Made by a program: the position numbers and the translations under genes
Shown here: positions 15,999 to 54,412 of the stretch, piece after piece
Numbering within the stretch: position 1 is the first letter of the stretch
Layout: each line of letters opens with the position of its first letter
Source of the DNA: Escherichia coli O127:H6 str. E2348/69
GTDB taxonomy: Bacteria > Pseudomonadota > Gammaproteobacteria > Enterobacterales > Enterobacteriaceae
NCBI RefSeq assembly: GCF_000026545.1
Contig: NC_011601.1
DNA length: 64,000 nt
Reading direction: 5' to 3' (one strand)
The notes under the pieces: generated by a model
The model's input: only the letters and a program-made list of their open reading frames with translations
What the model was told of the DNA's origin: nothing
Databases searched by the model: none

Positions 15999-18241
<2,243 letters not shown>

Positions 18242-23603: not shown

Positions 23604-23689
23604 GATATAAAAAAACCCGCCCCTGACAGGCGGGAAGAACGGCAACTAAAACTTTATTCAGTGGCATTTAGATCTATGTCGCATCCGGC

Positions 23690-23880
23690 AATTGGTGCAC
23701 GATGCCTGATGCGACGCTGGCGCGTCTTATCAGGCCTACATTGGTGCCGGATCGGTAGACCGGATAAGGCGTTCACGCCGTATCCGGCATACAGTGCCCG
23801 ATGCGACGCTGCCGCGTCTTATCGGGCCTACAAAAGTTCTGAACCGTAGACCGGATAAGGCGTTCACGCCGCATCCGGCA
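23690..23880. repeat. Cluster of REP (repetitive extragenic palindromic) elements
   Basis: Repeated GCCTGATGCGACGCTGGCGCGTCTTATCAGGCCTAC / CCGGATAAGGCGTTCACGCCGCATCCGGCA units in alternating orientation between fre and fadA. Confidence 0.8.
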
Positions 23881-31806: not shown

Positions 31807-33348
<1,542 letters not shown>

Positions 33349-33416
33349 CCTTAAAGAAGCGTACTTTGAAGTGCTCACACAGATTGTCTGATGAAAATGA
33401 GCAGTAAAACCTCTAC

Positions 33417-33493
<77 letters not shown>

Positions 33494-33535
33494 AATTTGC
33501 ACCGCAAATTTGAAGAGGTTTTAACTACATGTTAT

Positions 33536-33611
33536 GGGGCTATAGCTCAGCTGGGAGAGCGCCTGCTTTGCACGCAGGAGGTCTGCGGTTCGATCCCGCA
33601 TAGCTCCACCA
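33536..33611 (+). tRNA. alaT: tRNA-Ala (TGC anticodon), spacer tRNA
   Basis: GGGGCTATAGCTCAGCTGGGAGAGCGCCTGCTTTGCACGCAGGAGGTCTGCGGTTCGATCCCGCATAGCTCCACCA. Confidence 0.95.
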
Positions 33612-33794
33612 TCTCTGTAGTGATTAAATAAAAAATACTTCAGAGTGTACCTGCAAAGGTTCACTGCGAAGTTTTGCTCTTTAAAAATCTGGATCAAGCT
33701 GAAAATTGAAACACTGAACAACGAGAGTTGTTCGTGAGTCTCTCAAATTTTCGCAACACGATGATGGATCGCAAGAAACATCTTCGGGTTGTGA

Positions 33795-36698
<2,904 letters not shown>

Positions 36699-36796
36699 AC
36701 AACGCCGAAGATGTTTTGGCGGATTGAGAGAAGATTTTCAGCCTGATACAGATTAAATCGACAGGTCATAACGTGACGTGTTGATAAAACAGAATT

Positions 36797-36916
36797 TGCC
36801 TGGCGGCCTTAGCGCGGTGGTCCCACCTGACCCCATGCCGAACTCAGAAGTGAAACGCCGTAGCGCCGATGGTAGTGTGGGGTCTCCCCATGCGAGAGTA
36901 GGGAACTGCCAGGCAT
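36797..36916 (+). rRNA. rrfA: 5S ribosomal RNA (120 nt)
   Basis: TGCCTGGCGGCCTTAGCGCGGTGG...GGAACTGCCAGGCAT. Confidence 0.97.
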
Positions 36917-43078: not shown

Positions 43079-45865
43079 ATGGTTCAGATCCCCCAAAATC
43101 CACTTATCCTTGTAGATGGTTCATCTTATCTTTATCGCGCATATCACGCGTTTCCCCCGCTGACTAACAGCGCAGGCGAGCCGACCGGTGCGATGTATGG
43201 TGTCCTCAACATGCTGCGCAGTCTGATCATGCAATATAAACCGACGCATGCAGCGGTGGTCTTTGACGCCAAGGGAAAAACCTTTCGTGATGAACTGTTT
43301 GAACATTACAAATCACATCGCCCACCAATGCCGGACGATCTGCGTGCACAAATCGAACCCTTGCACGCGATGGTTAAAGCGATGGGACTGCCGCTGCTGG
43401 CGGTTTCTGGCGTAGAAGCGGACGACGTTATCGGTACTCTGGCGCGCGAAGCCGAAAAAGCCGGGCGTCCGGTGCTGATCAGCACTGGCGATAAAGATAT
43501 GGCGCAGCTGGTGACACCAAATATCACGCTTATCAACACCATGACGAATACCATCCTCGGACCGGAAGAGGTGGTGAATAAGTACGGCGTGCCGCCAGAA
43601 CTGATCATCGATTTCCTGGCGCTGATGGGTGACTCCTCTGATAACATTCCCGGCGTACCGGGCGTCGGTGAAAAAACCGCGCAGGCATTGCTGCAAGGTC
43701 TTGGCGGGCTGGATACGCTGTATGCCGAGCCAGAAAAAATTGCTGGGTTGAGCTTCCGTGGCGCGAAAACAATGGCAGCGAAGCTCGAGCAAAACAAAGA
43801 AGTTGCTTATCTCTCATACCAGCTGGCGACGATTAAAACCGACGTTGAGCTGGAGCTGACCTGTGAACAACTGGAAGTGCAGCCACCGGCGGCGGAAGAG
43901 TTGTTAGGGCTGTTCAAAAAGTATGAGTTCAAACGCTGGACTGCTGATGTCGAAGCGGGCAAATGGCTACAGGCTAAAGGGGCGAAACCCGCAGCCAGGC
44001 CGCAGGAAACCAGTGTTGCAGACGAAGCGCCAGAAGTGACGGCAACGGTGATTTCTTATGACAACTACGTCACCATCCTTGATGAAGAAACACTGAAAGA
44101 GTGGATTGCGAAGCTGGAAAAAGCGCCGGTATTTGCATTTGATACCGAAACCGACAGCCTTGATAACATCTCTGCTAACCTGGTCGGGCTTTCTTTTGCT
44201 ATCGAGCCAGGCGTAGCGGCATATATTCCGGTTGCTCATGATTATCTTGATGCGCCCGATCAAATCTCTCGCGAGCGTGCACTCGAGTTGCTAAAACCGC
44301 TGCTGGAAGATGAAAAGGCGCTGAAGGTCGGGCAAAACCTGAAATACGATCGCGGTATTCTGGCGAACTACGGCATTGAACTACGTGGGATTGCGTTTGA
44401 TACCATGCTGGAGTCCTACATTCTCAATAGCGTTGCCGGGCGTCACGATATGGACAGCCTCGCGGAACGTTGGTTGAAGCACAAAACCATCACTTTTGAA
44501 GAGATTGCGGGTAAAGGCAAAAATCAACTGACCTTTAACCAGATTGCCCTCGAAGAAGCCGGACGTTACGCCGCCGAAGATGCAGATGTCACCTTGCAGT
44601 TGCATCTGAAAATGTGGCCGGATCTGCAAAAACACAAAGGGCCGTTGAACGTCTTCGAGAATATCGAAATGCCGCTGGTGCCGGTGCTTTCACGCATTGA
44701 ACGTAACGGTGTGAAGATCGATCCGAAAGTGCTGCACAATCACTCTGAAGAGCTCACCTTGCGTCTGGCTGAGCTGGAAAAGAAAGCTCATGAAATTGCA
44801 GGTGAAGAATTTAACCTTTCTTCCACCAAGCAGTTACAAACCATTCTGTTTGAAAAACAGGGCATTAAACCGCTGAAGAAAACTCCGGGTGGCGCGCCGT
44901 CAACGTCGGAAGAGGTACTGGAAGAACTGGCGCTGGACTATCCGTTGCCAAAAGTGATTCTGGAGTATCGTGGTCTGGCGAAGCTGAAATCGACCTACAC
45001 CGACAAGCTGCCGTTGATGATCAACCCGAAAACCGGGCGTGTACATACCTCTTATCACCAGGCAGTAACCGCAACGGGACGTTTATCGTCAACCGATCCT
45101 AACCTGCAAAACATTCCGGTGCGTAACGAAGAAGGTCGCCGTATCCGCCAGGCGTTTATTGCGCCAGAGGATTATGTGATTGTCTCAGCGGACTACTCGC
45201 AGATTGAACTGCGCATTATGGCGCATCTCTCGCGTGACAAAGGCTTGCTGACCGCATTCGCGGAAGGAAAAGATATCCACCGTGCAACGGCGGCAGAAGT
45301 GTTTGGTTTGCCACTGGAAACCGTCACCAGCGAGCAACGTCGTAGCGCGAAAGCGATCAACTTTGGTCTGATTTATGGCATGAGTGCTTTCGGTCTGGCG
45401 CGGCAATTGAACATTCCGCGTAAAGAAGCGCAGAAGTACATGGACCTTTACTTCGAACGCTACCCTGGCGTGCTGGGGTATATGGAACGCACCCGTGCTC
45501 AGGCGAAAGAGCAGGGCTACGTTGAAACGCTGGACGGACGCCGTCTGTATCTGCCGGATATCAAATCCAGCAATGGTGCTCGTCGTGCAGCGGCTGAACG
45601 TGCAGCCATTAACGCGCCAATGCAGGGAACCGCCGCCGACATTATCAAACGGGCGATGATTGCCGTTGATGCGTGGCTACAGGCTGAGCAACCGCGTGTG
45701 CGTATGATCATGCAGGTACACGATGAACTGGTATTTGAAGTCCATAAAGATGATGTCGATGCCGTCGCGAAGCAGATTCATCAACTGATGGAAAACTGTA
45801 CCCGTCTGGATGTGCCGTTACTGGTGGAAGTGGGGAGTGGCGAAAACTGGGATCAGGCGCACTAA
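43079..45865 (+). CDS. polA: DNA polymerase I
   Basis: 928-aa product [45 protein letters not shown]...; 5'-3' exo, 3'-5' exo and polymerase domains. Confidence 0.98.
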
Positions 45866-46013
45866 GATTCGCCTGAACATGCCCTTTTTTCGTAAGTAAG
45901 CAACATAAGCTGTCACGTTTTGTGATGGCTATTAGAAATTCCTATGCAACAACTGAAAAAAAATTACAAAAAATGCTTTCTGAACTGAACAAAAAAGAGT
46001 AAAGTTAGTCGCG

Positions 46014-46122
46014 TAGGGTACAGAGGTAAGATGTTCTATCTTTCAGACCTTTTACTTCACGTAATCGGATTTGGCTGAATATTTTAGCCGCCCCAGTCAG
46101 TAATGACTGGGGCGTTTTTTAT
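46014..46122 (+). ncRNA. spf: Spot 42 small regulatory RNA
   Basis: GTAGGGTACAGAGGTAAGATGTTCTATCTTTCAGACC...GCCGCCCCAGTCAGTAATGACTGGGGCGTTTTTTA; conserved polA-engB intergenic location. Confidence 0.9.
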
Positions 46123-46139
46123 TGGGCGAAAGAAAAGAT

Positions 46140-46235
46140 CCGTAATGCCTGATACGCCATGTTTATCAGGCCAACGGTAGAATTGTAATCTATTGAATTT
46201 ACGGGCCGGATACGCCATATCCGGCACAAGCATTA
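46140..46235. repeat. REP elements downstream of spf
   Basis: GCCTGATACGCCATGTTTATCAGGCC and CGGGCCGGATACGCCATATCCGGCAC palindromic units. Confidence 0.7.
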
Positions 46236-46246
46236 AGGCAAGAAAA

Positions 46247-46894
46247 TTATTCGCCGTCCTGCGTTTCTTCTACAGGCTGCATCTCGCTAAACCAGGTATC
46301 CAGTTTCTGCCGCAGCTTGTCCACGCCTTGTTTCTTCAGCGAAGAAAACGTTTCAACCTGCACATCACCGTTAAACGCCAGCACCGCTTCACGCACCATA
46401 TTCAATTGCGCTTTACGTGCGCCGCTTGCCAGTTTGTCCGCTTTGGTCAGCAGTACCAGCACGGCGATATTGCTGTCTACCGCCCACTCAATCATCTGCT
46501 GATCCAAATCTTTCAGCGGATGGCGAATATCCATTAGCACCACCAGACCTTGCAGGCTCTGACGTTTTTCGAGGTACTCGCCGAGCGCGCGCTGCCATTT
46601 GCGCTTCATCTCTTCCGGGACTTCCGCATAACCGTACCCAGGCAAGTCAACCAGACGCTTGCCGTCAGCCACTTCAAACAGGTTGATAAGCTGGGTGCGC
46701 CCCGGGGTTTTTGAGGTACGAGCCAGGCTTTTCTGGTTAGTCAGCGTGTTCAGCGCGCTGGATTTACCTGCGTTGGAACGGCCTGCAAAAGCCACTTCAA
46801 TTCCGGTATCGGAAGGTAGGTGGCGAATATCAGGCGCACTCATCACAAAATGCGTCTGTTGATAATTCAAATTAGTCAAAGCGGTCGTCTCCAT
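46247..46894 (-). CDS. engB: Ribosome biogenesis GTPase EngB (YihA)
   Basis: G1 motif GRSNAGKSS; exact start uncertain (six-frame ORF begins [10 protein letters not shown]; the recalled K-12 product starts at MTNLN). Confidence 0.9.
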
Positions 46895-47149
46895 CAGTCA
46901 AAGCTTTGCGGCGATTATACCTGAACCATAATAAAAGGCGGATTTTTCGGCGTGAGCGTTGTAAGTAAAAGCCATATGCTTTGTGAGACATTGCCGATAG
47001 TCTTTATGCGAAATAGCAGAGAAAATTCTGCGACGTATGTCAAATAAGCTATATAAATCAGTTAATTGCTTTTATATAAAACTCTGAAAATGTGCAAATA
47101 CTGATGGCGGTTGATTGTTTATTTAAAGCAAAGGCGTAAAGTAGCACCC

Positions 47150-47392
47150 ATAGAGCGAGGACGCTAACAGGAACAATGACTCAGGATGAGGGTCAGGAGC
47201 GCCAGGAGGCGAAGACAGAGGATTGTCAGGAAGATAAACGTCCGGAGACGTAATTAAATGGAAATGGAATCAACACGGATTGTTCCGGCTAATGGAAAAA
47301 CAGGGTGTGTTGGCGGCCTGCAAGGATTGTAAGACCCGTTAAGGGTTATGAGTCAGGAAAAAAGGCGACAGAGTAATCTGTCGCCTTTTTTC
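47150..47392 (+). ncRNA. csrC: CsrC, CsrA-sequestering small RNA
   Basis: Begins ATAGAGCGAGGACGCTAACAGG; multiple GGA-containing motifs (CAGGATG, CAGGAGC, CAGGAGG, CAGGAAG, ACGGA, AAGGA); terminator GGCGACAG-AGTAAT-CTGTCGCC plus T-run; conserved engB-yihI location. Confidence 0.8.
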
Positions 47393-47460
47393 TTTGCTTG
47401 CTTTCTGTTAGATTCCGCCGCAAATCTATACTGAATAAAACGGCTAAAAGACGAACCATT

Positions 47461-47970
47461 ATGAAACCATCATCTTCAAACTCACGCAGCAAAGGTCATG
47501 CAAAAGCGCGTCGAAAAACACGCGAGGAGCTGGATCAGGAAGCTCGTGACCGTAAGCGTCAGAAAAAACGTCGTGGTCATGCGCCGGGCAGCCGCGCAGC
47601 GGGCGGTAACACCACGTCAGGCAGCAAAGGTCAGAACGCACCAAAAGATCCACGTATTGGCAGTAAAACCCCTATTCCATTGGGCGTGACTGAAAAAGTC
47701 ACCAAACAGCACAAACCGAAGAGTGAGAAACCTATGCTTTCACCGCAGGCGGAGTTGGAGTTACTGGAAACGGATGAGCGTCTGGATGCGCTGCTGGAAC
47801 GTCTGGAAGCAGGCGAAACCCTGAGCGCCGAAGAGCAATCCTGGGTGGATGCCAAACTGGATCGTATTGATGAGTTGATGCAGAAACTCGGCCTCTCTTA
47901 TGACGATGACGAAGAAGAGGAAGAAGACGAGAAGCAAGAAGACATGATGCGTCTGCTGCGGGGCAACTAA
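47461..47970 (+). CDS. yihI: Der GTPase-activating protein YihI
   Basis: Start at [24 protein letters not shown], 169 aa, basic N-terminus and acidic C-terminus. Confidence 0.9.
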
Positions 47971-48158
47971 CGGATTGCCGCCGTGGGCCTTCCCGTTCTG
48001 CTGATAACCCTTCCGGTTATATGTTATCTGGTGTGGTTATTCGTTAAACTACAGCGGTTGTCGCGGCGACAAAAGTGGCTGCGCAACCGGCTGATGACTC
48101 GAAACGGGCATCCGCCGGTACGCCGTAGCCGCCAGAGACGCCATCGGAAGGAGTGAGC

Positions 48159-49532
48159 ATGTCTGTACAGCAAATCGACTGGGATCTGGCCCTGATCCAG
48201 AAATATAACTATTCCGGGCCACGATACACCTCGTACCCGACCGCGCTGGAGTTTTCAGAAGACTTCGGCGAACAGGCGTTTTTACAAGCCGTGGCGCGCT
48301 ATCCTGAGCGTCCATTATCTCTCTACGTACATATTCCGTTCTGCCATAAGCTTTGTTACTTCTGCGGTTGCAATAAGATTGTTACTCGCCAGCAGCACAA
48401 GGCCGATCAGTATCTGGACGCGCTGGAGCAAGAAATCGTCCATCGTGCACCGCTGTTCGCCGGGCGTCACGTCAGCCAATTGCACTGGGGCGGCGGAACG
48501 CCGACGTATCTGAATAAAGCGCAAATCAGCCGTCTGATGAAGCTGCTGCGCGAAAACTTCCAGTTCAATGCCGATGCGGAGATCTCGATCGAAGTCGATC
48601 CGCGGGAAATCGAACTGGATGTACTCGATCATTTACGCGCCGAAGGCTTTAATCGGCTGAGCATGGGCGTGCAGGACTTCAACAAAGAAGTGCAACGTCT
48701 GGTTAACCGCGAGCAGGATGAAGAGTTCATCTTTGCACTGCTTAACCATGCGCGTGAGATTGGCTTTACCTCCACCAACATCGACCTGATTTACGGCCTG
48801 CCGAAACAGACGCCGGAGAGTTTCGCCTTTACCCTGAAACGCGTGGCGGAGCTGAACCCCGATCGTCTGAGCGTCTTTAACTACGCGCATTTGCCGACCA
48901 TTTTTGCTGCTCAGCGCAAAATCAAAGACGCTGAACTGCCGAGTCCGCAGCAAAAACTCGATATCCTGCAGGAAACCATCGCCTTCCTGACACAATCGGG
49001 CTATCAGTTTATCGGTATGGATCACTTTGCCCGTCCGGATGACGAGCTGGCGGTGGCCCAGCGTGAAGGCGTGCTGCATCGTAACTTCCAGGGCTACACC
49101 ACTCAGGGCGATACCGATCTGCTGGGGATGGGCGTTTCCGCCATCAGCATGATTGGCGACTGCTACGCGCAGAACCAGAAAGAGTTGAAGCAGTACTATC
49201 AGCAAGTGGATGAACAAGGCAATGCGCTGTGGCGTGGTATTGCGCTAACGCGTGATGACTGTATTCGCCGCGATGTGATTAAGTCGCTCATCTGCAACTT
49301 CCGTCTGGATTACGCCCCTATTGAGCAACAGTGGGATTTGCTCTTCGCTGATTACTTTGCGGAAGATCTCAAGTTGCTCGCCCCGTTAGCAAAAGATGGG
49401 CTGGTGGATGTGGATGAGAAGGGAATACAGGTGACGGCGAAAGGTCGCTTGCTGATCCGCAACATTTGCATGTGCTTTGATACCTATCTGCGCCAGAAAG
49501 CGCGGATGCAGCAGTTCTCTCGGGTGATTTAA
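48159..49532 (+). CDS. hemN: Oxygen-independent coproporphyrinogen III oxidase (radical SAM)
   Basis: Start at MSVQQIDWDLALIQKY; CxxxCxxC radical-SAM motif (CHKLCYFCGC). Confidence 0.95.
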   Translation: MSVQQIDWDLALIQKYNYSGPRYTSYPTALEFSEDFGEQAFLQAVARYPERPLSLYVHIPFCHKLCYFCGCNKIVTRQQHKADQYLDALEQEIVHRAPLFAGRHVSQLHWGGGTPTYLNKAQISRLMKLLRENFQFNADAEISIEVDPREIELDVLDHLRAEGFNRLSMGVQDFNKEVQRLVNREQDEEFIFALLNHAREIGFTSTNIDLIYGLPKQTPESFAFTLKRVAELNPDRLSVFNYAHLPTIFAAQRKIKDAELPSPQQKLDILQETIAFLTQSGYQFIGMDHFARPDDELAVAQREGVLHRNFQGYTTQGDTDLLGMGVSAISMIGDCYAQNQKELKQYYQQVDEQGNALWRGIALTRDDCIRRDVIKSLICNFRLDYAPIEQQWDLLFADYFAEDLKLLAPLAKDGLVDVDEKGIQVTAKGRLLIRNICMCFDTYLRQKARMQQFSRVI

Positions 49533-49599: not shown

Positions 49600-49745
<146 letters not shown>

Positions 49746-49986
49746 CCGGCGTAAACAACGAGCTTCAGCTAAACAGCCCTATCATCGCGGCACACAGCAC
49801 GGCAGCAACAGCAGTTTGCGGTGTGTGGCTGTCAACTGCGCCACTCGATACCAGATTAATTATTGATTCCAGCATAATGACTCTCCCCGTTTTCCGGGCA
49901 AGATCATACTGAACTTATAGGAACAGTAAAGCGCAAAATACCAGCAATTTGCGCTCAATAATCAATCTTTACACACAAGCCGTGAA

Positions 49987-54194: not shown

Positions 54195-54262
54195 GCACCA
54201 TGATGTGAATGTTGCACCAATATAGTGCTTCAATGGAAACATTAAGCACCATATTGGTGCAA
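54195..54262. promoter_or_regulatory. NtrC enhancer sites upstream of glnA
   Basis: TGCACCA/TGGTGCA-type dyads: TGCACCAATATAGTGCT (54214-54230) and the perfect palindrome GCACCATATTGGTGC (54246-54260). Confidence 0.75.
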
Positions 54263-54412
54263 TGACCTTTGGATAACCCTTTTTATGCTCCGTGAAAGCG
54301 ATCACAAAGGGACTCTGCAATACTTGTTTGCGGAGGATGTTTGTGATCCTGTTTTGTAGTGCGATTAATCCGTGTACAATAACGCGCTATTTCTAATGCC
54401 TGAGGCAAAGTT

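Follow-up and report, generated by a model that had tools for sequence, protein, structure and literature searches.

Spot 42 and CsrC RNA genes on either side of yihA in Escherichia coli E2348/69

In the chromosome of Escherichia coli E2348/69 (EPEC O127:H6), the minus-strand gene yihA (engB) is almost certainly flanked by two separately transcribed regulatory RNA genes, both on the plus strand: spf, which specifies Spot 42, and csrC, which specifies CsrC. Both identifications are already known, and the arrangement is the standard one of E. coli. Knowledge of Spot 42 dates back to the 1970s and that of CsrC to 2003, while SpfP, the small protein encoded within Spot 42, was added in 2022. The window analyzed is a stretch of 64,000 nt, from whose first letter all positions are counted. 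Its part from 45800 to 47500 is 100% identical to the E2348/69 chromosome, and at least 80% of this part is carried by 5422 of the 5426 complete E. coli genomes. The gene order polA-spf-yihA-csrC-yihI-hemN is given by NCBIfam models, RefSeq and the K-12 record, and the curated record of K-12 MG1655 lists, in order, spf (b3864), spfP (b4837), yihA, csrC (b4457) and yihI. Boundaries are those of the curated MG1655 features, mapped via pairwise alignments of both intergenic regions, and the locus is laid out as follows.

43079..45865, plus strand: polA, DNA polymerase I (NCBIfam equivalog, 1251 bits)
45866..46012, plus strand: spacer between polA and spf, the spf promoter region, 147 nt
46013..46121, plus strand: spf, Spot 42 RNA (classical form of 109 nt; 111 nt in the K-12 record, extending to 46123)
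Between spf and yihA: convergent 3' spacer, 123 nt, holding two REP-like palindromes
46247..46879, minus strand: yihA (engB), coding sequence of a ribosome-biogenesis GTPase (RefSeq WP_000183349.1)
Between yihA and csrC: divergent yihA/csrC control region, 270 nt, including the UvrY site
47150..47395, plus strand: csrC, CsrC RNA (246 nt; Rfam RF00084; mapped from K-12 b4457)
Ahead of yihI: yihI leader, 65 nt
47461..47970, plus strand: yihI, Der GTPase-activating protein (NCBIfam equivalog, 169 bits)
48153..49532, plus strand: hemN, HemN (NCBIfam equivalog, 804 bits)

A sequence-only reading of this DNA had named Spot 42 and CsrC in the polA-engB and engB-yihI intergenic regions, and had suggested that this be checked by a scan with the Rfam covariance models. 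With Rfam 15 at gathering thresholds, the scan of the whole 64-kb window was positive for both RNAs, each over the full length of its model. For Spot_42 (RF00021) the match covers 46003..46121 (+) and scores 122.8 bits, where the threshold is 80, with E = 3.6e-24 and positions 1-115 of the 115 in the model aligned. For CsrC (RF00084) it covers 47150..47403 (+) and scores 276.7 bits, where the threshold is 61, with E = 2.9e-87 and positions 1-255 of the 255 in the model aligned. Both matches are far beyond chance, no finding speaks against either identification, and a repeat permissive scan of 45800..47520 returned the same two above-threshold matches. The best clan member at the csrC locus was CsrC, not CsrB. 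Sub-threshold matches to Thr_leader, mir-3926, SpF25, STnc240, BjrC68, VrrA, NsiR1, ctRNA and others were rejected as terminator look-alikes because all of them sit on the two terminators, and a weak minus-strand CsrC match at 47357..47398 is accounted for by the terminator palindrome. The names given earlier to the neighboring genes were also right, the NCBIfam equivalog models being in agreement with polA, engB and yihI. YihA/YsxC, a synonym of EngB, is recognized by TIGR03598 at 252 bits (cut-off 124); its open reading frame spans 46247..46894, and the annotated coding sequence 46247..46879.

Could the two matches be relics that no longer function, or mere coincidences of sequence? Nothing supports such an account. 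The RefSeq record of E2348/69 annotates neither sRNA, in that it has spfP but lists neither spf nor csrC as an ncRNA; sRNAs of this kind are, however, not a routine part of PGAP annotation. The E-values of both matches speak against the account, as do the promoter-proximal sequence, the UvrY site and the terminators, all of which are intact, and both RNAs are conserved in 5424 of the 5426 genomes, with Spot 42 at least 99% identical in every one of these. The probability that the matches are remnants or coincidences is vanishingly small. Spot 42 is single-copy, and CsrC occurs at a second place in about 64 E. coli genomes; each RNA is absent from two of the 5426, and for Spot 42 and CsrC alike two of the roughly 5400 matches lie on records labelled plasmid.

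Several other elements were seen elsewhere in the window. The "Erse small RNA" (RF02757) has a full-length match at 16353..16604 (+), scoring 317 bits where the threshold is 138, and since this match ends in AAAUGA it may overlap the 3' end of a coding sequence. ES222 sRNA (RF02755) is likewise matched over its full length, at 54224..54331 (+), scoring 133 bits where 62 is the threshold. The span 31807..36914 (+) is taken up by a complete rRNA operon comprising 16S, two tRNAs (33417..33490 and 33536..33608), 23S and 5S; StyR-44 is matched at 33679..33787, immediately ahead of 23S.

Spot 42 lies downstream of polA and is convergent with yihA/engB, a position between polA and yihA that is common to E2348/69 and K-12. 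The RNA is the same as K-12 spf (b3864) at all 109-111 nt, including the SpfP frame and the terminator. Its predicted fold has a free energy of -40.6 kcal/mol (z = -5.1), which none of 200 shuffled sequences equaled, and the minimum-energy and centroid folds place hairpins at nt 1-48, 61-77 and 78-101 and leave nt 49-60 single-stranded. The elements within the RNA are:

46023..46026, plus strand: GAGG Shine-Dalgarno sequence, 5 nt upstream of the spfP AUG
46031..46078, plus strand: spfP frame inside Spot 42, 15 codons and a TGA stop (translation MFYLSDLLLHVIGFG, then stop)
46089..46121, plus strand: intrinsic terminator of Spot 42, an 11-bp stem with 8 G-C pairs followed by a U tail

The spfP frame is annotated in both E2348/69 (WP_071892919.1) and K-12 (b4837), and Spot 42 is a dual-function RNA that also codes for a protein, the 15-residue SpfP. 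The label of sRNA given to it earlier is sound insofar as it denotes a regulatory RNA, and is incomplete in leaving out the reading frame inside. In K-12, Spot 42 is bound by Hfq and acts through base pairing to repress galK, among other genes for non-preferred carbon sources, while transcription of spf is itself repressed by CRP (Aoyama et al., PMC8916003). Experiments in K-12 have shown both the translation of SpfP, which is favored at higher temperature, and its binding to CRP (PMC8916003). It is very unlikely that the RNA of E2348/69 has only one of the two roles, serving either as SpfP mRNA alone or as a base-pairing RNA alone. The intact spfP frame and Shine-Dalgarno sequence could be taken to favor the first of these, and the second could appeal to the predicted fold, where the ribosome-binding site and AUG lie within the first hairpin, which would limit translation. 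The RNA is nonetheless identical to K-12 Spot 42, and in K-12 base-pairing repression and SpfP activity have been genetically separated and both work (PMC8916003). As a dual-function RNA, Spot 42 of E2348/69 would, by analogy, be made in glucose and repressed by cAMP-CRP, and its base-pairing activity would be Hfq-dependent and would repress mRNAs, galK among them, whose products take up and break down non-preferred carbon sources.

CsrC, like Spot 42, shows every feature of its family that can be read from sequence. Fourteen GGA motifs are present, and when placed on the family consensus six lie in hairpin loops, five in linkers and three in partly or fully paired positions. No other 246-nt stretch of the 64-kb window, whichever the strand, has a higher GGA count. 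When compared to dinucleotide shuffles of CsrC itself (mean 8.9), the excess is moderate, with 14 reached by 21 of 2000 shuffles, or about 1%, because the composition of CsrC is itself GGA-rich. The fold has a free energy of -85 kcal/mol (z = -6.2; 0 of 200 shuffles as good), and no plus-strand reading frame within CsrC exceeds 28 codons. CsrC was found in 5424 of the 5426 complete E. coli genomes. The elements associated with the gene are:

46960..46965, plus strand: TGTAAG half-site, 16 bp upstream of the UvrY repeat
46982..46999, plus strand: UvrY-binding 18-nt imperfect inverted repeat TGTGAGACATTGCCGATA, centered at -159.5 from csrC
47357..47395, plus strand: intrinsic terminator of CsrC, with perfect 16-nt arms and a 4-nt loop, followed by a U tract

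The same bases carry a different label in RefSeq, where PGAP has placed a "hypothetical protein; frameshifted; internal stop" at 47176..47342 (+), wholly inside CsrC (H4J01_RS25580). Taken at face value, this would make the stretch a decayed protein-coding gene rather than an RNA gene, and it is not an isolated call: the pseudogene is called in E2348/69 and in strain 042, and in every genome listed the CsrC match overlies a "hypothetical protein". The annotated interval nevertheless contains two in-frame stops, the longest plus-strand frame in CsrC is only 28 codons, and these bases give the full-length 276.7-bit CsrC match with GGA motifs in loops. The curated K-12 record has the ncRNA csrC at this stretch, and the acidic, Gly/Gln/Glu-rich "peptide" is what is produced by translating repeated AGGA/CAGGA motifs. 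A decayed coding gene is thus extremely improbable, and the pseudogene is an annotation artefact arising from translated GGA-rich repeats.

As an RNA gene, csrC can be compared with what is known from K-12 and from its larger paralogue. CsrC and CsrB sequester CsrA from mRNAs through multiple high-affinity GGA sites (PMC7652899, PMC4682653), csrC transcription is activated by phosphorylated UvrY (PMC4682653), and CsrC decay is driven by CsrD with RNase E (PMC7652899). The sequence and spacing of the csrC UvrY repeat were set by ChIP-exo and footprinting in E. coli (Zere et al., PMC4682653), and the repeat and TGTAAG half-site found here have the sequence and spacing published there. The repeat TGTGAGACATTGCCGATA is matched exactly at a single place in the window, where 0.01 such matches would be expected. 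In E2348/69, phosphorylated UvrY would be predicted to activate csrC transcription by binding the inverted repeat some 160 bp upstream, GGA motifs in loops and linkers of the RNA would bind CsrA dimers and keep CsrA off its mRNA targets, and turnover would depend on CsrD and RNase E. For both RNA genes, binding by Hfq, CsrA, CRP and UvrY and the regulatory outcomes are carried over from the K-12 literature and may be expected to apply here by analogy.

CsrB resembles CsrC in sequestering CsrA at multiple GGA sites and belongs to the same Rfam clan, CL00106 CsrB/RsmB (PMC7652899); it is also activated in a UvrY-dependent manner from a far-upstream inverted repeat (PMC4682653). The two differ in that CsrB contains 22 GGA sequences (PMC7652899, PMC4682653), compared to the 14 of CsrC here. 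The repeat of csrB is a near-perfect palindrome, TGTGAGAGATCTCTTACA, whereas that of csrC is less symmetrical, and CsrB needs IHF while csrC does not (PMC4682653).

Promoters for the two RNA genes were placed less directly. A sigma-70 consensus promoter scan of 45800..47520 gave no sites, against 2.2 expected, and so both promoters are putatively assigned from K-12 homology and from TAAAGT hexamers read by eye:

46000..46005, plus strand: spf -10 candidate TAAAGT, 7 nt upstream of the 5' end
47137..47142, plus strand: csrC -10 candidate TAAAGT, 7 nt upstream of +1

The candidate -10 hexamer, and its 7-nt distance from the mapped 5' end, are the same for spf and csrC. A weak CRP-like match, TGTGATGGCTATTAGA, at 45921..45936 upstream of spf is a candidate only, and a second CRP-like match, TGCGACGTATGTCAAA, is found at 47029..47044, about 115 bp upstream of csrC, where K-12 has TGCGATGCATGTCAAA. 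Across the whole window the CRP consensus TGTGAN6TCACA, with up to two mismatches, gave 19 matches against 25.9 expected, and since the motif is not enriched, the CRP-like matches near spf and csrC are indistinguishable from chance.

The sequence-only reading had also held that the two RNAs account for the intergenic regions that the open reading frames leave unexplained, and this is correct in part. Of the 381 nt between polA and yihA, Spot 42 takes up 111 (29%), and of the 581 nt between yihA and yihI, CsrC takes up 246 (42%). With the spf promoter region, the convergent spacer, the divergent control region and the yihI leader also assigned, both spacers are fully covered by plausible explanations. 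The span given for the two RNAs, 46014-47392, was close at its ends: it starts one base inside the 5' end of Spot 42 and stops 3 nt short, position 47392 being where the terminator stem of CsrC closes and the annotated 3' end of csrC lying at 47395. Between these ends it also takes in the 123-nt spacer, the complete yihA/engB gene and the 270 nt of DNA upstream of csrC.

The convergent spacer holds two REP-like palindromes between the ends of spf and yihA:

46147..46171: REP-like palindrome GCCTGATACGCCATGTTTATCAGGC
46205..46225: REP-like palindrome GCCGGATACGCCATATCCGGC

Both belong to the direct-repeat family GCCKGATACGCCAT, and each forms a hairpin. They fit the REP-type pattern with no mismatch; this pattern was counted 24 times across the window, where 3.2 would be expected, with clusters at two Rfam naRNA4/REP sites. 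The palindromes at 46147..46225 are therefore probably REP elements, as judged from their sequence. The K-12 record shows no repeat features between spf and yihA, nor at the REP cluster between hemN and yshB, and its silence at spf-yihA is uninformative because the hemN-yshB cluster is also unlisted. Matches to naRNA4 (RF02564, a REP-derived nucleoid-associated RNA) were observed at 23758..23828 and 49657..49728 (+), and coincide with REP-type palindrome clusters at about 23677..23879 and 49600..49750.

Relative to K-12, the polA-yihA spacer has a 1-nt indel at 45882, just after polA, a substitution at 45973 upstream of spf (about -40; A here, G in K-12) and three substitutions downstream of spf, so that three of the five differences are inside the REP-like palindromes. 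On the other side of yihA, whose coding sequence has two substitutions at its 5' end, the 270-nt region upstream of csrC has five, two of them inside the CRP-like match at 47029..47044. The UvrY repeat with its TGTAAG half-site, and the place of csrC between yihA and yihI, are as in K-12. CsrC itself has the length, 5' end, terminator, GGA number and hairpin layout of K-12 csrC, and differs by three substitutions in 246 nt (47235 C>T, 47259 C>T and 47293 A>T). All three fall where the Rfam consensus is unpaired, and every GGA is kept, although the base immediately 5' of a GGA is altered twice, from ACGGA to AUGGA (47259) and from AAGGA to AUGGA (47293). The E2348/69 allele is a common one, 2502 genomes having CsrC at least 99% identical to it. 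There is a small chance that the EPEC CsrC allele and the promoter-region substitutions could measurably change CsrA sequestration or the response of csrC to carbon source. If so, CsrA-controlled virulence genes would be tuned differently from those of K-12, but such a functional effect is improbable and of minor interest.

The earlier statement that neither RNA is novel is borne out, both being known E. coli genes in their usual places, and no new biology follows from the locus. Its value lies in annotation. Scans confined to open reading frames leave these intergenic regions unexplained, and recognition of the two RNAs takes about 360 nt, together with regulatory DNA, out of the unexplained sequence; it also points to one pseudogene call that is false and is repeated from one E. 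coli genome to another.
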